Of a stretch of DNA of 64,000 bases, positions 2,100 to 23,669 are shown piece by piece. Position 1 is the stretch's first letter. The number at the start of each line of letters is the position of its first letter. The translations under genes were made by a program, and so were the position numbers. Under the pieces are notes generated by a model. The model worked only from the letters and a program-made list of their open reading frames with translations, searched no databases and was not told the DNA's origin. This DNA comes from Cyanidioschyzon merolae (Eukaryota): NCBI GenBank assembly GCA_000091205.1, contig AP006497.2, one strand, 5' to 3'.

Positions 2100-2525
2100 G
2101 TATGGTGAGGTACATGCGCTCACCGTGCCTCACCACGGAGCTTGCATCCCGCCGTCTACGCGGCACCCTGGTATCGAGCGCGCAGTCAAGGATCCCAGAA
2201 TGATCATGTATCCTGATTCCGTGTCGGGATGGAGCATTCCTTCATTCGACGCTCTCAGTGGTATGGCAAAGCCGCTCTGTCTCCGTGCAGCCTCGGTAAC
2301 AGTAATTCAGGCGCCAATGCGGGCGCTCAAAGCAGGCACCTGTCACACGACAGAACATACGAAACGACCAATACATCCGAGAACAAACAATGGAACTTGG
2401 AGGTAAGATGCAGCATGATGGACACTTCTTCGATTACCATTACCCATCCGGCAATATGGGATTCATGGTCAATGTAAACGTTTTGTCATCGAAAAAATCA
2501 GTGTACCATTTTCATCGCGTCCGGG
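2100..2525 (+). repeat. 5'-truncated copy of the 3' region/tail of the LINE family annotated at 3700-7300 (family A copy A1)
   Basis: DNA and ORF similarity (…MIMYPDSVSGWSIPS…, …acgaaacgaccaatacatccgag…, …ggtcaatgtaaacgttttgtcatcgaaaaaa) to 6900-7300, 17500-17910 and 22960-23430. Confidence 0.7.
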
Positions 2526-3699: not shown

Positions 3700-6600
3700 A
3701 GTACCGCAGCGCTATTCCTATTCCCTTATGCGCTACGACTCGATAGGTTTCGCATCATGGAATATTTGTGGGATAACCTCGAAACTATACGACGAGATAT
3801 CGAATTACCAGTACAGTAATGAAGAACTGATACACGTCGAGGACTGTACAAAAGGAAAAGAGATCCAACGGGATACGGAGAAGGAGACACAGAAACCTCA
3901 TGATCCACCTAGATGCAAAATAACCAGAGAAAGCAGCTCAGGAAAGAGCCCGAAGAAGAAGAAGACCAGCAAGAAAAAAACAGAAGAATAGAAAAAAGAA
4001 CTCCCAAACGAGCCCATCACAAGTTATCCCCTGAAAGGGCACCCCAGCGGGAACTCAAGAAAGCCGTCGCCGAACCCAGGCACCTGCTCACAGCGCTGAA
4101 GATCCGAAATGCCGTGCATGCAAATCTTTAGACCAATTGGCACGCGAGTTTGTAGATGGGAATCAGAAGACTGCCAGAGAACTGGGACTGCTTGCACCAG
4201 AACACAACAGTTGCAAACCTCAGTACCTCAAACGACGTACCAAAACTCGGATTGATGAATGCCACCGACTCAATAAGATCCTCAACCGCACCGCCATACG
4301 CGCCAACGCCGGAGACAAGGAAGCGAAGGCAGTCCCAACGGCGCTACAGGCACAACATGAGGAAGCTATCAAAAGAAAGAAGAAACGTTCCAGAGAAGAC
4401 AAACGAGGGGATCGAAACCGCAAAATCGCCTCCCTGGCGAAATCTATGCTCGAGAGCACCACCGAAGATGAGACCTGGCGCTACATTCGATCGAGACTGG
4501 ACCCACCAAAAAAGTGCTTGGGGCTCACACCAATCGTTTATAAGAAAGCGCTGAGGACGGAGAGTGCCTCAGTGAATGAGGCCTGGACGGACCACGGCAC
4601 AGAATTACATGAAGACGCAACTGGGCACTGCCGAAACCGAAACTATTGGCACCAATATGCTGCAGAACTACCACGCCTCGACCCGGTACCGGAATGGAAC
4701 GACCCAATCTTCTGGCCTGAATCTGTTCGGGCCCTGTTAAGCTCATGCAACCGCAAAACACCTGGCATTGACGGTATCGCTGCCGAGTGGATGAAACTGG
4801 TGATCCCAAAATACGAGACAACAGGGACACCATCGATACCAGATAAACCTGACACAATCTTAGGCAAACGCCTTCTGGAGCTCATCCAACGCATGTTTGA
4901 AGAAGCCTACATCCCTGATGTATGGAGGGCTGCCGAGGTCGCACCGATCCTCAAAAAGGACTCCCACATACACAGACACGAACAACTACCGGCCTATCGG
5001 CCTCATCCCGTCAATCATGAAGCTACTTTTGCGCCAACCTCACGAACCGGATCCAGAGAGGCCTCGAGGAACGCAAGTTCTTCGCCCCAGGGAGGGCTGG
5101 ATTCCGGAGCCGCGAGGAGTGCATGAGCCATGCCCTGACCCTCACTGAAGTGGCGCAACGTCGCTTTATTCGTGACCGACAACCAACTTACGTATGCTTC
5201 ATTGACTTCCAAAAGGCCTTTGACACGGTCCCGCACGAGGCCCTATTTTTGAAGATGGAACGAGCCGGAGTCTCCGCAAAGTGCTTGGCGTTCTTCCGTG
5301 CGCTCTCTGCAGACTCGTGGATGCGCATCCGACTGGGCGACGGCTGAAGAACCCCTTCCATAAGAATCCGCCGTGGACTGCGGCAGGGCGAGCGCGCATC
5401 CCCGCTCCGTTTTAACATCTTCATCAACGATCTGCTGAACAACTGCAGACAATTCGCGGCTGAGGCGCCGTGGATAGACTGTGGAGATGCTCGGTGAGGA
5501 GCGCCCACATGGGAACTGCCTCGAAGGCCTTCTACTTGCGGACGATGTCGTGCTGTTGGCACCCGCCCTGGAAACGCTTGCGGCTAGCATGGAACAAGTC
5601 AGCGCCTGGGCCGATCGCTGGGAGATGAACGTAGGAGCATCGAAGTGCGGCGTCATGGTCATCCATGGAGACTCGCAGAGCATTCGCAATCGCTCGTGGC
5701 GGTTGCAGAATCAGGAAATTCCGATCGTGGAAAAATATCGCTACCTGGGGGTCGGTCTCACGCCGACGCTCGACGAAAAGGCACACGTCGACGTGGTGAT
5801 CGCCAAGATGCATAGACGTACAGCGATCGCACGCCCAGTCCTATCCGACCCCTCTATCCCCTTAGCAATCCGTACCAGGGCACGAAGGATGTGTATCATC
5901 CAGCCTGCGACCTGGGGTGCTGAATGGTGCGGCATGAAGCACCCAAATGCCTCGCGTCTGCAGACAGCCGCCAACAGGGCAATGAGACTCGTTGTTGTTG
6001 GATGCTCAGTGCAGAGCAGAGCAACCACCCCGCTGGCACTCGGACCTGAACTCCAAATACTCTCAATAGAAGCGATAGCACCAGGTTGCCGGGCACGCAT
6101 ACGGGCCAAAGGGCGCACTATGCGCACCTCTTTGAGTCGGGTTTTCATGCAGACCCCAACGCACCGCAAGAACACTTGGATGAAATCAACGCAGATTTGG
6201 GTGAAGCGCCTCTTAGGAGACAACATGCTCCAATCGTTCCCCAGGAATACAGAATTCTCCCGTCGCCTGAAGCGAACGGTCCAAACAACAGTACGGGAAT
6301 GTAGACATGCAGTCAGTCGCGCCCTTAACGCCGGCTTGACTCTATACCGGAACTACAACCTAGCATACACATGCAAGTACTGGTGGGAGGCGCTGGAGTT
6401 CCCGGGACTTGCTCGAGGTACCCAGTGGCTCGCGAAAATCCGCGTTGGTGGCTTCTGGCTACCAGCACGGGCTCTAAGCCGTATGGGAACACTGGAATCG
6501 CACTGGGAATCACACTGTCCCTGCTGTGGGGATGAGACCCCCAAGACGCTGACATATTTAGGCTTACAGTGCCCGCGCTGGATGCAGGAGCGCAACGAGC

Positions 6601-7300
6601 TCCTTGAAGGACAGCAGCAGCTGGGCATCATCGTGATAGCCGAAGGCCGGACACTCACTCTGAGTGTAGCACTGGCAACTGATGGTCCGCTAACGGAGCC
6701 TCAGCGCTCATTAATGGCGAACAAACTCACATGCTACCTTCTAGAAAAAAGGGTCCAGCGAATCGGATGCGAACACGGGTTTAGTGTTCTTTGTGCCTAC
6801 CCACTGGTGGGTGTCAAGCACAAACCCGCATTGCCAACCGACAACAACGCATTCCATGCATGATCACGAAGGAGAGAGGCGGCTCCCAGGATATATCCGA
6901 ACAGCCATGTTTCTCCAGCGTGTCGTGCAGCGAAGGCAAGCCTGCATCCGCAGACTGTCCAAGCACAAACTGACGTCGAGTTCCGATTCTACGTCGGGTG
7001 AAACACGCCTCGAGCCGACGCCCGCTGTGGTACGGTAACGCCGTTCTAGCTCGATGAACTATCTGCTCTAGCGTTCAAGCGCAAAGGCGAATATCGAACG
7101 GCAGGTACGAGGCACACACGATAGGACGTATGAAACGACCGGAATATCCGAGAAGAAGTATAGGTAATGGAACTTGGAAGTAGGCTGTTTGATGGATACT
7201 TCACCGCGCATTGGAAAACACAAAAAAAGTAAGAAAAGAAAAATGCGCATAATCGGAGAACGCTGGCCAAAGTAAACGTTTCGTCAATGAAAAAAATGCC
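3700..7300 (+). mobile_element. degenerate non-LTR (LINE-type) retrotransposon; 5' boundary uncertain, 3' end at the A-rich tail ...gtcaatgaaaaaaa (~7300)
   Basis: K/E-rich upstream ORFs; RT motifs in three different frames; C-terminal Cys motif; shared 3' tail with truncated copies elsewhere in the window. Confidence 0.8.
4137..6863 (+). pseudogene. reverse transcriptase ORF of the LINE, disrupted by frameshifts and stops (frames 0/1/2/0)
   Basis: KTPGIDGI pre-RT motif; NYRPIGLIPSIMKLL (motif 0/1); FIDFQKAFDTVPHEALF (motif 2); RQGERASPLRFNIFINDL (motif 4); LLADDVVLLA (YxDD-type motif 5); CPCCGDETPKTLTYLGLQCPRWMQER C-terminal zinc-finger-like motif typical of LINE ORF2 C-termini. Confidence 0.85.
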
Positions 7301-7480
7301 GCAGTTGAAGGGAAACGTGATCTTGATATCTAGCATGTAGCTCTAATGTAAACGCTGTATTTTCGTTACCTTCATAGCCAAGTATAGTTTTCAGTTCATT
7401 GGAGTTCCAAACCTCAAACATGTGTATTCAATTGTTTTGTCGCAGTATATAACAGAAGCGTTCAAGGAGCTTTCTTTTTC

Positions 7481-7500
7481 AAAAAAAAAAAACTAAAAAA
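7481..7500 (+). repeat. poly(A) tract (a10-a-c-t-a6) at the start of the AT-richer island
   Basis: seen in sequence. Confidence 0.8.
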
Positions 7501-7653
7501 GGAAAGTTATGAAAAAGCAAGTCGACAATCCTGGAGGCCGAGGGTCGTCGGCTGCCAAAAAAAAAACAAAAAACTCTGCCGAGTCCAGAAGAAAAGGAAG
7601 AGAAGAAGGACCGAAAGGAGGAGGCTCTCCGTCGAAGGCGGCAAGAAAGACGA

Positions 7654-9660
7654 ATGTACGACGAGATGGTTGTGAAAGCCGGTTTTCTTAAACATATCAA
7701 GGATCCGTACAGGGAAAACTTGCGTGACGCTTTCGAAAAACGTGTCGACTCGTACTCCAAGAGTACTGTGAAGGCGTCGTCAGGGCTGATGCATTTGGTG
7801 AGCGAGATGTATCGCGACGTGACGCACATGGAAACGGTCGAGATTCGGGGCGAGTCTCTCGACATCGCCTTTATTCGTCACCTGATGCTTGATACAGGTG
7901 AAGCGCGGAGGGAAAATGTGCTAGTGCATGCCCTCCACGAAAAACATCCCTTTGACGGGTTCGAGGGTACTCGGTACAAGGGTGACCGGAATATTTACGA
8001 CTATGGGGCCATGAAGTAACTCACGAATCTGAAGAACCGTTTGACAGTGAACCTCGAACGTTTCATGATACGCGCCGTGTTTGCGCTCTACCCGGGCATC
8101 TCTCGCAAAGGAAAATGGGCGATTATCAATGGCATCACGAACGATCGCAAACATGAAGATGAGGTCGAATTTGTCGACAAGAAGGCGTCAAACGAGAACA
8201 CGAATGCAGCTTCTGTCATCCGTGCGGCTATAAAAGAGCATCGTGCAGTCTCGGGGCTGACGAACCCAACAGAAAAGGTATTAGATTTGAAAAAAGATAA
8301 GGAAAGATACGATCGCCTCGTCCTACGGTATTTCGTGTTTTAGGACCGAGAGCTCGAACGCAAGGCAGAGATGAAGCAGAGCGAGGAAAAAAATGAAGAG
8401 TGGGAGAGACGGAAGGCGTTCCTAATGGGGAAGCGCTTCAACGTCGTTCCAATATGCAACATCAAGTCACATTTCGTGACTGTCGACTCCGGCGTCCTTT
8501 ACGGCATCATGAAGGAGATCGGTCCGGAGTTCAACGTTAGCAGGGAGGAGTTCTCCAATGAAGCCCGTGAGACGTACTGGAAGAGTATCTTCGATTTCAA
8601 ACGTCTCAAAGTAAGCAAACAAAAGGTATTCACTGGGATGATCGAAACCGATGGGATGGCCATGTGTGTACACTATCGGCGGTTGAAGAAAGATCGTCCA
8701 GTCCCGCCCTCGGCAGCGCCCGTGACGAAGGATGAAGAAAAGGAGGAGGCTGGTCCTGCGACTCGGCAGGTAGAGGATAACGACCTTGTCGTTGGCTCGG
8801 TGAAGCATGAGGATGAGAAGGAGGCGGATCCTGCCACACAGAAAGTGCAGGATAACGACATTGTCGTCGGCACAGCCCCCGGAAACACTAATATCATAAC
8901 CATCTCTGTACCAAAGCGTGCGGAAGATGGTACTGATGGTAACTTATGTCAGAAAGACATGCGTCTTTTGAGGTTCTCGAGAGCGAGATACTATAGAGAA
9001 TCCGGTATAATGAATGCGAGGGAGAAAATTGGTACGTGGAATGCAGGAATGAAGGATCACCTGGAAGCTTTGAGCGAGATGACTAGCCGAGGAGCGGACT
9101 TTCAAGCTTTTCGGGAGTTCATGGAAGTTCGCGTTGCTCGTTGGGATGCACTGTGGAAAGAGTATACAAAGCCTCGGTGGGCTCGTCTACGTATGAATCT
9201 ATTCGGTGGGAGGCAGCGAGCGTCCGCGAACTTTTTCAATCAGTTGAGTGCCCTCAAAGAGGACAAGACTCAAAGGCTCGTAGTAGCATATGGAGCAGGG
9301 CGCTGGAAGACCCAAAAAGAAACTATGCCAGCTCCAACGACAAGAACATACAAGGAGTGTGCACGGCGTTTCGTTACGATACCTGTAGATGAGTTCCGAA
9401 CGTCCTAAACACAGCATGAACTGGGTTGTACACTTCAGAGCGTCGAGATGGAAAAGTGCCAGCGGAGTGCTGAGGATATAGCAACGTACGGACCGCTGAC
9501 GGAGGAGCTAATGGAAAGGAGGGCGAAAGTTCGGGGACTACTCGCATTAGTAAGTACAACCAGCGATGGCAAGAAACGTATGGAGTTTGTTCAACGAGAC
9601 TTTAACGCTACCATGAATATTCGAAGAGGTGCGGTGTTGGAGAAAAGACCTCCAGAGTGA
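7654..9660 (+). pseudogene. TnpB/Fanzor-like (OrfB_IS605-family RuvC-like) transposon-encoded nuclease relic. One ~669-codon frame interrupted by three in-frame stops (TAA 8017, TAG 8341, TAA 9406).
   Basis: C-terminal …VTIPVDEFRTS[TAA]TQHELGC…EKCQR…FVQRDFNATMNIRRG matches the TnpB/Fanzor pattern V-x-P-x-x-TSQ-x-C-x-x-CG … RD-x-NAA-x-NI (zinc-finger remnant plus RuvC-III). The stop at 9406 falls exactly where the conserved Q (CAA) is expected. A K-rich NLS-like ORF lies just upstream (7509-7691) in another frame. Local GC is lower than in flanking DNA. Confidence 0.5.
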
Positions 9661-9831
9661 ACAAGAAAGAACTTTATTGGACAACATCTCAAAGTCGATT
9701 TATATGAGAAGAAGTTGGAACCAGCAGTGGGTGGCCGGTCCAAAAAGACGGGGAGGCGTGTTTGCACTTCAGTTGGAGACGCTTTTGCTAGGGCACGTTC
9801 ACCACCACTCCTGTACACCGGTGGCGATGGC

Positions 9832-10698
9832 ATGCAGCCTAGGAGACGGTATCGAGGCCACGCAACCATAAACGAGGAACGACATCGTGCAGCACAGTTC
9901 GCCACTGCTGCTTCTGGGTATGTCGAAGAGAGGGAGGCGGCGCTTCGTGAGCAGTGCGTCGTTTTCCAGGGAAAGTTGCAGGCGTTTGCGAGAGAGCACC
10001 GACGGGAGATAGAGTCTGATGGCGCGCTTCGGACTCGTTTTCTGGAACTCTGTATGAACCTTGGTGTTGAGCCGTTTTTGTCTCGCCGCTCAGTATGGTC
10101 GCAACTGCTGGGACTCAGTGAGTGGTACGCCCGACTCGGGTTTCTGGTCGCGCAGATCGCTTTGGCGACACGGGACTGGAACGGTGGTGTCATTCGTCTG
10201 ACGGTTCTCCGAAGGGCGCTCCAGCGACGTCTGGACGTAGACTGTGGCACTCAGGAACCCAGTGAGAAACGCGCACGCATCGTATCCAACGACGATATCG
10301 CACGCGCAGTTCGAACCCTGGAGCGATTGAGGGCAGGGTTTCGGATCATCAGTATTGATGAAGGTAAAAAGGAGTGTTGCCTTGTCTCGGGAGCGGCTGG
10401 CGAGATCAGTTTTACAGAAGACGAGAAAGCCGTGTTGCAGCGTGCACGAGCAACAGGCGGTTCGATTTGTCGACAAGACCTGCCATGGGAGAATATTCGA
10501 TGGGGGCGATCCATAGAGCGTCTGCTCCAGCTGGGCATTCTGTGGGTCGATGACGGCGCAAGTGATGGCCAGCGACGATACTGGGCCCTCGGGCTGATCC
10601 CAGAATCCATCGAGGATCAGAATCCAGTTTCCGAGTCGGGCCCCAGCGATCGATACGAAGGTCGCCCCATAACCTCAGTGGCGTCTAAGCTCCCGTGA
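9832..10698 (+). CDS. VPS22: ESCRT-II subunit Vps22/SNF8 (EAP30 family)
   Basis: alignment by eye to Vps22: …FQGKLQAFAREHRREIESDGALRTRFLELCMNLGVEPF…WSQLLGLSEWYARLGFLVAQIALATRDWNGGVIRL…NDDIARAVRTLERLRAGFRIISI…RYWALGLI; start taken at MQPRRRY (the ORF extends upstream to 9715). Confidence 0.8.
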   Translation: MQPRRRYRGHATINEERHRAAQFATAASGYVEEREAALREQCVVFQGKLQAFAREHRREIESDGALRTRFLELCMNLGVEPFLSRRSVWSQLLGLSEWYARLGFLVAQIALATRDWNGGVIRLTVLRRALQRRLDVDCGTQEPSEKRARIVSNDDIARAVRTLERLRAGFRIISIDEGKKECCLVSGAAGEISFTEDEKAVLQRARATGGSICRQDLPWENIRWGRSIERLLQLGILWVDDGASDGQRRYWALGLIPESIEDQNPVSESGPSDRYEGRPITSVASKLP

Positions 10699-17041: not shown

Positions 17042-17499
17042 GGCGTCTACGCGACGTCAAACAGACAGTGCGCGAGCTCGCACCTGTAGCTTAACTTGAG
17101 CACGTCACGCTTGATGAGTGCGTAACCAGCTGGGTCAACTGCCCCGGCTCTGCTGGTACCGCAACACGAACGCGTAACGAACGAATGAATAAATGCAGGA
17201 AATGAAAATGTGCGCATTGCGCGCCACTAGGCAGCGCCAGGCGTACCAAGCGCGTACTGTAAAGAAAAAAAGAACAGAAACGAAACAGTAACTAGCAACG
17301 AGATAACATTTTCTTTCCCGTCTAGGACAAGCCTTAAAAGGGAGAAGAGGTTTCCGGGTTATCGAACGTTTCCTTCCTAGACGGAAGGCCCGCGATCCGG
17401 ACGAGTGTGCTGGGCTCGTGCTTCATGCTCTCTCCGGTTGCGGGCGCTGTAGTGAGATCTGAGCAGCTCCTCCGCAACGCAGTTTATTCTAGGAGCGGA

Positions 17500-17910
17500 C
17501 TACTGCATGTGGGCGTCGCGCTGGTCGCAATGGACTCCCAGTCCATCGCTCCCTGCCACCGCAGGCAACAGGTCTGTCTGCGCATTTCGCAGGATCCCAA
17601 CATGTTATTGAACCCCGATTCTGTGTCGGGTGAAGCATTCCGTGATTCGGCGCCCTCAGCGGTATGAAAAAGCCCTCCAGTCGCCGTGATGCACCTGTTC
17701 CAGCGGTGTAGGCGATATGGCTGGAGCTCAAAGCAGGCTCAGTGAACGATAGAACGTACTGAACGACCAGTACATCCGAAAGAAAGTACAAGTAATGGAA
17801 CGTGGAGAGAGGGTGCAACATGGTAGTCGTTTTACCGATCATCAAATTCCATACCGCATCCCGGAACATACGTGGTCAATGGAAATCTTTTGTCATCGGA
17901 AAGAGAATAC
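17500..17910 (+). repeat. 5'-truncated LINE family A copy (A3), arranged head-to-tail with A4
   Basis: …gggcgtcgcgctggtc…; NMLLNPDSVSGEAF; acgaccagtacatccgaaag…ggtcaatggaaatcttttgtcatcggaaagag tail. Confidence 0.7.
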
Positions 17911-17914
17911 CTTC

Positions 17915-18470
17915 TAGGCAAAAGGTCCAGCGAATCGGATGCGCATACGGGTTTCGTGCGCTTTCTGTGCTTACCTTCTGTGGTGGGTGTCACGCACAAA
18001 CCCGCATTGCCAACCGACAACAATGCATTCCATGCATGATCACGAAGGAGAGAGGCCGCTCCCAGGATATATCCTAACAGCCAAGTTTCTCCAGGGTGTC
18101 GTGCAGCGAAGACAAGCCTGCATCCGCAGACTCTCCGAGCACGAACAGACGATGAGACCCGATTCTACGTCGGATGAACCACGCCTCAAGCCGACGCCCT
18201 CTGTAGTATAGCAACGCCGTTCTGTCTCCGTGCAGCGACCGCACCGGCGCTATAGGCGCTATTGCTGTCGCTTTCGGCAGGCTCGGCACACGATAGGACG
18301 TATGAAACGACCAGAATATCTGAGACGAAGTATAGGTAATGGATCTTGAGTGTAGGGGGTTGATGGATACCTCATTGCGCACTGAAAAAAAGAGAAAAAA
18401 GTAAGAAAAGAAAAATGCACATTATCGGAGAACGCTGGTCCATGGAAACGTTTTGTCAATGAAAAAGAAA
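17915..18470 (+). repeat. 5'-truncated LINE family A copy (A4) retaining ~90 codons of the RT C-terminus plus the 3' tail; ends 99 bp upstream of the cyclophilin ATG
   Basis: near-identical to 6752-7300 (…ggtccagcgaatcggatgcg…gtgggtgtca[a/c]gcacaaacccgcattgccaaccgacaaca…gtcaatgaaaaag). Confidence 0.85.
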
Positions 18471-22959: not shown

Positions 22960-23430
22960 GTTCGTGCAAGCGGTTACGCGGCCGGTGCGTTGTTTTTTTT
23001 GATGACAAAACGTTTACATTGACCATGGATCCCAGATTGCAGGATGGATATTGGTAATCGAAAAAGTATCCATCATGCTGCTGTACCCTACCTCCAAGTT
23101 CCATCACCCATACTTCCTCTCGGATATACTGGTCGTTTCGTACGTTCTAACGTGCACCGAGTACCTGCCATGCCGTACCCGCCGTAGAGCCTATACTGCT
23201 GGTCCGGATTCAGCAAGGGAACGGAACGGCGTTGCCATACCACTGAGGGCGTCGACTCGAGGCATGGTTCATCCGACAGGGAGTTGGGATTCATTATCAT
23301 ACTGGGAGCCAGCAAGCTGCGCAGACAGACGTACTGCCTGCGACAGCGCGAAGCGATATCCTAGGAGTCCTCTGGGACCAGCGCGACGCCCAGAAGCAGC
23401 CCATCAGCACCTTGTGTCAGAATGAACTGC
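22960..23430 (-). repeat. 5'-truncated LINE family A copy (A5) on the minus strand; its tail ends ~284 bp upstream of the carrier start codon, in the same orientation
   Basis: reverse complement shows …gggcgtcgcgctggtc…ctcctaggatatcg…MIMNPNSLSDEP…acgaaacgaccagtatatccgagagg…ggtcaatgtaaacgttttgtcatcaaaaaaaa. Confidence 0.75.
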
Positions 23431-23669
23431 GTTGCGGACGAGTTGTTCAGATCTCACCATACCACCTGCCACTGGGGGAAGCATGAAACGCAAGCCCGGC
23501 AGACTTGTCCGGCTCGCGGGACCTTCCGCCTAAAAGGTAAACTTTCGACAATATGGAGACCTTTCCGCCTTGGCAGGCTTCGATGGCGTCGAGGCGGTCG
23601 ACTGAGCACATCCCCAAATCCTATAGTACGGCATCTGGCTCGGAAACGATGCACAACATTGAACCGGAG

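Follow-up and report, generated by a model that had tools for sequence, protein, structure and literature searches.

What kind of element lies between the remains of a LINE-like retroelement and the VPS22/EAP30 gene of Cyanidioschyzon merolae, and how did it come to be inactive? The question is raised by a 64,000-nt stretch of contig AP006497.2 (assembly GCA_000091205.1), called the window below. The proteins BAM81627.1, BAM81635.1, and BAM81628.1 are encoded exactly within it, which assigns it to C. merolae 10D. A first-pass annotation had read here a decayed Fanzor/TnpB-like RuvC nuclease gene of a eukaryotic alga, lying beside LINE debris, and this reading holds. The main frame (7654–9660, plus strand) translates as it was quoted, ending in ...VDEFRTS-stop-TQHELGC...EKCQR...QRDFNATMNIRRG...RPPE-stop, and contains exactly three internal stops, TAA at 8017, TAG at 8341, and TAA at 9406. 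The depressed local GC content is also borne out (0.46–0.51 at positions 7001–10000 versus 0.55–0.58 in the flanks). Table 1 presents the coordinates of the features discussed below.

Table 1. Features of the Fanzor unit and its left neighbour in the window.
Feature	Position	Strand	Basis
Decayed, probably LINE-like retroelement, 3' half; outside the Fanzor unit	5123..7296	+	RT fragments, C-terminal extension, ~430-nt tail, oligo-A 7289–7296
Decayed copy of a CMe-1A-type Fanzor1 unit	7297..9826	+	Homology limits, consensus comparison
Non-coding 5' segment of the Fanzor unit, presumably promoter and 5' UTR	7297..7508	+	Consensus reconstruction, indel list
Fanzor1 pseudogene	7509..9660	+	Start ATG 7509, end TGA 9658–9660; compared with consensus
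K/R-rich, NLS-like N-terminus	7509..7653	+	Consensus MKKQVDDPGGPGSPAARKKQKTVPSPEEKEEKKNRKGEALRRRRQERR; the 7559 insertion splits the window copy across two frames
Disordered linker directly before RuvC-I, encoded by two degraded tandem repeat units of 75 nt (25 aa)	8727..8871	+	Self-blast, TRF on L001
Codon of the catalytic RuvC-I Asp, changed from GAC to GCC (Ala)	8875..8877	+	Window GTAPGNTN versus family GADPGNTN
Gly in place of the canonical RuvC-II Glu (VVAYGAG); Fanzor-type rearranged site	9292..9294	+	G623 invariant in 116 relatives; aligns with SpuFz1 VVMGDW
Alternative catalytic Glu (VDEFRTS), kept in the window copy	9391..9393	+	E656 invariant in 116 relatives; aligns with SpuFz1 LDEYKTS
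RuvC-III Asp (QRDFNATMNI), kept in the window copy	9598..9600	+	D725 near-invariant in 116 relatives; aligns with SpuFz1 NRDMLSTCNML
3' non-coding region, where a Fanzor omega-RNA scaffold would be encoded	9661..9826	+	3' end truncated in the window copy

Identity of the repeat unit

The membership of the window element in Fanzor1 is firm. Single-sequence searches of Pfam, NCBIfam, and the PDB with the stop-corrected window translation gave no match, and only profiles succeeded. No Pfam or NCBIfam model, PF01385 and PF07282 (the families first put forward as a check) included, was matched significantly by the window translation or by the relatives tested, and a profile search seeded with close relatives brought back only fragments of the same decayed family. 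A homologue search with the window translation yielded 59 homologues, and the intact 752-aa relative P0001 is 71% identical to it over 100% of the length. When a profile of 13 family members was compared with all PDB sequences, the sole match was SpuFz1 (8GKH, E = 1.2e-9, profile positions 246–587). An AF2 model of P0001, computed from a 116-sequence alignment, reached a pLDDT of 83 and a pTM of 0.81; a 13-sequence alignment had given a pLDDT of 43 and was discarded. Foldseek searches with this model placed solved Fanzor1 structures (SpuFz, PpFz, GtFz) at all of ranks 1–7, with E values from 5e-16 to 2.5e-13 and a full-length match at a TM score of 0.71 (up to 0.72), and Cas12 and TnpB scored far more weakly. 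As judged from sequence comparison, the resemblance to the Fanzor family is far beyond chance.

The element at 7297–9826 is one copy of a repeat family with 71 related loci, whose copies have a mean pairwise identity of 81%. Its limits, at window positions 7296/7 and about 9812–9827, recur in most of the related loci that have the end in question. The window copy is 87% identical to the family consensus, that is, about 13% diverged, and the search for intact copies found a fully open frame in only one of about 70 loci. [quoted passage not shown] The family described here shares with CMe-1A the species, the multi-copy state at about 80% identity, the 3-kb unit, the absence of TIRs and recognisable TSDs, the single Fanzor1 ORF with a few intact examples left, and a 5' module of about 620–635 nt that also exists separately (TE-N2_CMe). 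No difference between the two is known at the family level; the window copy is truncated, mutated, and joined to a LINE tail in place of the TE-N2 module. It is very probable that 7297–9826 represents an inactive member, truncated at both ends, of the C. merolae Fanzor1 repeat family published as CMe-1A, an assignment that follows the host species, the copy properties, and the protein family as set against the published description. The remark that such eukaryotic homologues are still sparsely catalogued does not apply to this family, which has been described since 2013 (PMC3627910); with the family already known and the window copy dead, the locus adds little as a finding. Its interest lies elsewhere, first of all in the modelled fold, which provides a structure-level, independent check of CMe-1A as a genuine Fanzor1 with the rearranged RuvC site.

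The ancestral unit measured about 2.65–2.8 kb and encoded a single protein of about 750 aa, in which a K/R-rich N-terminus and a helical REC-like half precede a disordered linker of 25-aa repeats and a split RuvC domain. Its triad is of the rearranged Fanzor type, with an Asp in GADPG, a Gly at the old Glu position, a Glu in DEFRTS, and an Asp in RDFNAA. Beyond the ORF come about 190 nt of non-coding sequence with a small hairpin at the end. Judging from its homologues SpuFz1, GtFz, and PpFz, the intact protein was presumably an RNA-guided dsDNA endonuclease; transcription of its putative guide RNA would take place at the 3' end of the element and continue into flanking DNA. An element of this kind, having neither transposase nor TIRs, would have to be mobilised in trans; no transposase ORF was found within the Fanzor unit.

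Other known systems resemble the family to different degrees. SpuFz1 of Spizellomyces punctatus (PDB 8GKH, 9CEU–9CEZ), together with GtFz and PpFz, is alike in its full-length fold (E = 5e-16, TM 0.71), in the split RuvC Asp, the Gly at the old Glu position, the Glu in DE(F/Y)xTS, and the Asp in RDxN, and in the non-coding sequence that follows the ORF. However, sequence identity to these proteins is only about 15%, and CMe-1A has a disordered insert of 25-aa tandem repeats before RuvC-I and no CxxC...CxxC zinc ribbon. The prokaryotic TnpB of IS200/IS605 elements (ISDra2, PDB 8H1J) is more distant. The two have in common the RuvC core fold, ends that bear hairpins and lack TIRs and TSDs, and a nuclease that is not the transposase, but a Pfam OrfB_IS605 or zinc-ribbon match and TnpA are absent from CMe-1A, whose protein is about twice as large, carries an NLS-like N-terminus and a rearranged glutamate, and matches TnpB in Foldseek at E = 0.04 only.

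RuvC site, protein architecture, and lesions

The catalytic residues can be followed from the family into the window copy. The RuvC-I Asp, encoded by GAC or GAT in 26 of 27 aligned copies and invariant as D484 among the 116 relatives, is present in the family and lost in the window copy. The Glu of VDEFRTS lies 33 residues after the Gly of VVAYGAG. A Gly at the old Glu position combined with an alternative Glu downstream is the layout described for Fanzors (PMC10312701). The 25-aa linker repeat counts four units in intact relatives, and the linker region (residues 380–470 of the AlphaFold model) has a pLDDT below 50. The zinc-finger layout claimed between the RuvC motifs did not hold in its canonical form. 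It is degenerate in the family, and the consensus between RuvC-II and RuvC-III (TSYTHHELGCTLQRVEMEKCQ...GLLALVS) contains no CxxC pairs but two Cys and two His. PF07282 reaches only E = 0.23 on P0001, and a few distant relatives do bear it.

The true start of the ORF is the ATG at 7509, which the family consensus places in the same frame as the main ORF. Relative to this consensus, a 1-nt A insertion at 7559 causes a frameshift in the window copy. The first-pass statement that no frameshift occurs over about 2 kb concerned 7654–9660, and the insertion lies upstream of that stretch. The K/R-rich stretch had been placed in another frame. The window copy is indeed split across frames by the insertion, but the block at 7579–7653 is already in the main frame and the N-terminus of the consensus, with its KKQK... 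and RRRRQERR stretches, is in frame. Fanzors typically carry an NLS at the N-terminus (PMC10312701). The first reading had overlooked that the RuvC-I Asp is lost, that the frame shifts at 7559, and that both element termini are absent.

One frameshift, three stops, the loss of the RuvC-I Asp, and the absence of both termini, and with them of the end of the putative guide scaffold, leave the window copy unable to act as a guided nuclease.

Termini, neighbours, and modes of spread

At the left terminus of the window copy about 57 nt are missing, including the LE hairpin GCGCTC-ggt-GAGCGC, and at the right terminus about 23–28 nt, where the RE hairpin CGTTCGA-ctt-TCGAACG lies. This additional terminal sequence is common to other copies and absent here. 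No TIRs were found in the unit; subterminal hairpins are present in other copies.

All copies share about 190 nt of 3' non-coding sequence. A multi-helix fold of this region is possible (84–90% of cells paired versus about 32–58% in slid controls; z-score -1.3). Covariation is marginal with the ribosum-scored structure, barely above shuffles (1–2/500 shuffles), and is at shuffle level, i.e. none, with the hand-drawn hairpin structure. RNAalifold gave -2.5 kcal/mol on the whole 3' block, and the region had no match in Rfam. Its divergence from the consensus (K = 0.147) compares with a dS of about 0.2, as does that of the 5' non-coding part (7297–7508; K of about 0.15–0.18), in which the A-run at 7476–7498 is 4 A longer than in the consensus.

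The left neighbour probably corresponds to the LINE debris and poly(A) tract noticed earlier, an identification supported by sub-threshold RVT_1 matches and by the oligo-A tail end at 7296. It contains two collinear ORF fragments (5123–5347 and 5481–6863) that match RVT_1 at E = 2e-5 and 6e-4, both below the Pfam threshold; no endonuclease domain was found within 5123–7296. The oligo-A end at 7296 is fused directly to the truncated left end of the Fanzor unit. The LINE tail recurs in the window at 18176–18466 and 23064–23270, as well as at many loci, with a variable 5' extent. Across the family, the left end of the Fanzor unit nearly always abuts other repeats, mostly LINE-related, and the right end abuts unique DNA. 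This reproducible and unexplained pattern, in which the 3' end stays constant and the 5' partners vary and are mostly LINE-related, is the second point of interest of the family. A search for TSDs around whole insertions and around the TE-N2 plus Fanzor composite gave nothing convincing.

Two readings of how such units spread have to be weighed. According to the first, which is somewhat unlikely, CMe-1A would be a non-autonomous ssDNA transposon of the IS200/IS605, Helitron, or rolling-circle kind, on whose subterminal hairpins an HUH enzyme would act in trans, the upstream modules being acquired by end bypass. Hairpins occur near both ends, and two LE variants retain their pairing (GCGCTC/GAGCGC and GCGCG/CGCGC), as do two RE variants. 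A conserved A|TCG or A|GCG marks the left junction, TIRs and detectable TSDs are absent, and one constant plus one variable end is the pattern of one-ended rolling-circle transposition. Fanzor1 genes are moreover known as Helitron cargo, and a similar pattern of fuzzy 5' ends has been reported for the Fanzor1 family MCi-2 of Mucor circinelloides (Bao and Jurka 2013). Like CMe-1A, MCi-2 combines a constant 3' region carrying the Fanzor gene with 5' regions that vary by subfamily, and lacks TIRs; in contrast, it has 11–12-bp TSDs, nearly identical copies, and a Crypton fragment, whereas CMe-1A copies are old and their 5' modules mostly LINE-related. Against an ssDNA transposon, neither the window nor the loci inspected yielded a Rep or Y1 gene, the termini do not fit the Helitron TC...CTRR, and Replitron-type Reps are undetected in red algae according to the literature. 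A specific identity as Replitron or Helitron was accordingly rejected, on the misfit of the termini and on Replitrons being unreported in red algae.

According to the second reading, which is unlikely, CMe-1A Fanzor units may not be classical DNA transposons: a few source loci would give rise to copies that include upstream sequence, possibly when LINE reverse transcriptase reads through, switches templates, or primes twice (twin priming). Such copying would explain the nearly constant fusion of left ends to LINE tails or LINE-tailed modules, the constant right end, and the absence of TIRs, TSDs, and transposase. In its strict form, which is no less doubtful, the unit would spread as RNA, a passenger of the LINE enzyme by read-through/3' transduction or template switching. 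At no fewer than six independent loci, one and the same LINE 3' tail, always in one orientation and with the LINE truncated to a variable degree at its 5' side, abuts the left end. At other loci the left end is joined to a LINE-tailed module of about 620 nt, consistent with the published TE-N2_CMe, and at L001 to an inverted LINE segment that begins at the LINE tail and runs inwards, resembling twin priming. At one locus the Fanzor 3' UTR is fused to the LINE tail at the microhomology ACGTTTTGTC. The right ends are constant and abut unique DNA, and neither TIRs nor a transposase is present. On the other hand, no poly(A) follows the right end, only a short G/T-rich sequence; TSDs were not recognised, clearly 5'-truncated units are few, and the 'class b' upstream module is not LINE-derived. 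The adjacency could also arise if repeats nest where insertions are tolerated or if the LINE prefers ATCG-type targets, and hairpins at both ends are more like those of ssDNA (HUH-type) transposons. If copying by the LINE enzyme were true, an RNA-guided nuclease riding on a retroelement would constitute a new kind of association between Fanzors and transposons.

Two related proposals were abandoned. The 'class c' left module had been considered as an inverted LINE 3' fragment generated by twin priming, but fits better as a LINE-tailed repeat in its own right, about 620 nt long and also found alone. A LINE tail on the right end of many copies was rejected, as it occurs at one locus only.

Retention and decay of the window copy

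The right end of the relic lies against a gene. The annotated start codon of BAM81628.1 (VPS22/EAP30) is at 9832, 6 nt past the last base of Fanzor homology. In this compact genome, such proximity raises the idea that the relic has been retained by co-option of its 3' end as promoter and 5' UTR of VPS22/EAP30. This is quite unlikely, as the argument is one of position only and the rest of the copy decays freely.

The least tenable reading is the mutational history first proposed, i.e. a recently silenced Fanzor gene killed by cytosine methylation or deamination, with stops created by CAA/CAG>TAA/TAG changes, which is highly improbable. Some features do point towards it. Among 260 substitutions, G>A (51) and C>T (32) lead, with 31 of these 83 in a CpG context, the GC content of the element (0.487) is slightly below that of the family consensus (0.505), and its dN/dS fits a relatively late inactivation. 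Nevertheless, the consensus codons largely refute it. The stop at 8017 derives from TAC (Tyr) and that at 9406 from TAT (Tyr), each by a single transversion to TAA, and the stop at 8341 derives from CTG (Leu) by two changes to TAG, one of which is C>T. Nor does the last stop fall on the Q of a TSQ motif, as the family has a conserved Tyr at this position (TSYTHHELGC). CpG is not depleted (observed/expected 1.19 in the element versus 1.12 for the window), TpG+CpA is at 0.97, most of the low GC is already there in the family consensus, and the copy is already some 13% away from that consensus. A motif-based call can thus be right while the mutational story attached to it is wrong, and this is the third point of interest, made by the precise list of lesions.

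Relative to the consensus, dN/dS is 0.28 for the window copy, against a family median of 0.38, and the values across the family record past selection on the protein. At the level of sequence, the value of 0.28 suggests a fairly late inactivation of an old lineage, since it implies that only a small, late part of the divergence of the window copy represents neutral decay. The description 'recently silenced' can be kept for the inactivation itself, and is to be dropped for the family, which is old, with copies that are about 81% identical.

Identity of the window copy

The frame 7654-9660 (+) comprises 669 codons and is open except for TAA at 8017, TAG at 8341, and TAA at 9406, as the first-pass annotation had described. 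Its C-terminal part reads VDEFRTS*TQHELGC...EKCQR...QRDFNATMNIRRG. The stop-corrected translation alone had no match in Pfam, NCBIfam, or PDB. It has 59 homologues in a large protein collection, and P0001, an intact relative of 752 aa, shares 71% identity with it over its whole length. In a PDB search with a 13-member family profile, the sole match was SpuFz1, the Fanzor of Spizellomyces punctatus (8GKH, E=1.2e-9), and it spans the RuvC half.

A diverse set of full-length relatives was obtained by seeding the search with distant family members. D484 (GADPG), G623 (VVAYGAG), and E656 (DEFRTS) are invariant in a 116-sequence alignment, and D725 (RDFNAA) is near-invariant. This layout is the rearranged Fanzor active site, in which the canonical RuvC-II Glu is replaced by Gly or Pro, with a compensating Glu downstream (PMC10312701). 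AlphaFold2 built a confident model from the same alignment (pLDDT 83, pTM 0.81), which was compared with PDB by Foldseek. The best 7 matches are all solved Fanzor1 structures (SpuFz, PpFz, GtFz), the best with E=5e-16 and a TM of 0.71 across the whole chain, and Cas12 and TnpB rank far below them. The earlier assignment to the Fanzor family was right and is now backed by profile, fold, and active-site evidence. An exhaustive profile search returned 4,122 representative clusters, and the protein family is therefore large. This lineage has only a degenerate form of the canonical CxxC zinc ribbon.

The initial guess of an algal-type eukaryote was borne out by three ORFs identical to annotated proteins of C. 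merolae strain 10D, carried by a chromosome of 902,900 bp. A single Fanzor1 family, CMe-1A, has been described in this species. Its copies, about 150 in number and some of them still intact, show about 80% identity to a consensus of about 3 kb; the family lacks TIRs, its TSDs are undetermined, its class is unknown, and its 5' 635 bp correspond to a separate repeat, TE-N2_CMe (Bao and Jurka 2013, PMC3627910). We found 71 related loci in hot-spring metagenomes, with a mean pairwise identity of 81% among copies, sharp edges of the Fanzor unit, and a module of some 620 nt, distinct from the unit, that precedes it in some loci and stands alone in others. Compared by description, these features agree with CMe-1A, and the Fanzor family of the window copy is already published.

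Features of the window
Feature	Position	Strand	Remark
BAM81627.1	141-1052	minus	identical to 10D protein
LINE-tail or TE-N2-like repeat copy	2190-2486	-	
Left neighbour	5123-7296		decayed LINE-like element with oligo-A tail
Fanzor1 relic	7297-9826	+	
75-nt tandem repeat	8727-8871		directly before RuvC-I
BAM81628.1	9832-10698		VPS22/EAP30-like; identical to 10D protein
LINE-tail or TE-N2-like repeat copy	17264-17814	-	
LINE-tail or TE-N2-like repeat copy	18176-18466	+	
LINE-tail or TE-N2-like repeat copy	23005-23571	+	
BAM81635.1	25950-27047		identical to 10D protein

Lesions and age

A majority consensus was built from 19 non-redundant full-length copies, and the window copy is 87% identical to it overall. 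In the consensus, the main ORF can be read in frame from the ATG at 7509; the window copy has an extra A at 7559, and the resulting frameshift divides the K/R-rich N-terminus between two frames. The RuvC-I Asp codon has changed from GAC to GCC, and about 57 left nt and 23-28 right nt common to other copies are missing, including the hairpins GCGCTC-ggt-GAGCGC and CGTTCGA-ctt-TCGAACG, respectively. The stops arose by TAC>TAA, CTG>TAG, and TAT>TAA, and the CpG o/e of 1.19 carries no deamination signature, which contradicts the proposed decay by methylation and deamination (CAA/CAG>TAA/TAG). The reported drop in local GC is real (0.46-0.51 over 7001-10000 vs 0.55-0.58 in the surroundings), and most of it is a property of the family itself (consensus GC 0.505).

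A fully open frame is kept in only 1 of about 70 loci. Since dN/dS against the consensus is 0.28-0.62 (median 0.38), most divergence arose in lineages with the protein under selection; by a rough estimate, the three stops of the window copy are consistent with a brief final period of neutral decay. The sole fully open 752-aa ORF (L001) is interrupted in L002, the same locus in a second metagenome (99.5% identical), reflecting either population polymorphism or an assembly error; at least 5 further metagenome contigs also encode the 752-aa protein.

The 75-nt array has 2 units in the window copy vs 4 in the intact L001 (11149-11449), and copy number varies from 2 to at least 4. Each repeat encodes 25 aa, acidic and K/E/D-rich, predicted to be disordered (model pLDDT below 50). 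The matched Fanzor1 structures are of shorter proteins, with 590-726 residues in the listed chains.

Unit ends and mobility

The left neighbour has two collinear RVT_1 matches, both sub-threshold. To the right of the relic, BAM81628.1 has its annotated start codon 6 nt past the last base of Fanzor-unit homology; by position, the promoter and 5' UTR of this gene would lie inside the relic's 3' end.

A 3' non-coding stretch of about 190 nt is common to all copies, and its rate of change is slightly below that of synonymous sites (K=0.147 vs dS of about 0.2). A possible multi-helix fold is closed by AGUAGUGG/CCACUACU and pairs 90% of cells. Its covariation is marginal, an alternative hairpin set for the block has none, the consensus fold z-score is -1.3, and an Rfam search of the block gave no match. 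Because this support is weak, the omega-RNA at the 3' end is a putative one that we infer from family biology.

How CMe-1A moves is the only question that we judge worth following. The Fanzor unit carries neither a transposase nor TIRs, and a search around its insertions found no TSDs. The right end adjoins unique DNA in nearly every locus. The left junction falls at a constant point, (A)TCGCG... or AGCGCG..., and the sequence fused to it almost always belongs to a small recurring set. This can be the 3' tail of the LINE that precedes the window copy, with the LINE truncated to varying extents, or the LINE-tailed module of some 620 nt in head-to-head orientation. It can also be a stretch of about 120-780 nt taken from the DNA downstream of a divergent Fanzor unit's right end, and the intact locus has an inverted LINE segment in this place. 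Across L001-L072 (window equivalent 7240-7297), the partners are the LINE tail, the TE-N2 module, and two further recurring upstream modules, classes b and d. The module of some 620 nt ends like the 3' terminus of a LINE (rc TTTTTGATGACAAAACGTTTAC) and has about 190 nt in common with the LINE 3' UTR at 6993-7184; the module appears to be the LINE's SINE-like partner.

A constant 3' end with a variable 5' end also characterizes MCi-2, a fungal family described in 2013. Three readings fit this pattern: a reverse transcriptase may have copied units out of a few source loci, a one-ended rolling-circle process may have acted, or repeats may simply have nested. One Fanzor copy (L069 7340-7366; also L057 and L064) breaks off within its 3' UTR and is joined there to a LINE tail at a 10-nt microhomology (..GGAGACGTTTTGTC|AATGAAAAAGA). 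This fusion, followed by a (CGCACACA)n-like microsatellite, looks like a reverse transcriptase template-switch product.

Independent LINE copies often end in ...GAAAAAAA followed by ATCG (window 18468; L025, L056/L058, and L063 junctions), the tetranucleotide that starts the Fanzor unit. Either the LINE terminus includes these four bases, or both elements prefer the same target. Divergent Fanzor subfamilies (L069 3516-3965; L024 252-2378; second copies in L021/L022) share about 64-79% DNA identity with the window type and have the same right-end architecture; in L069, a divergent and a standard unit are arranged in tandem, the divergent one being about 710 nt upstream.
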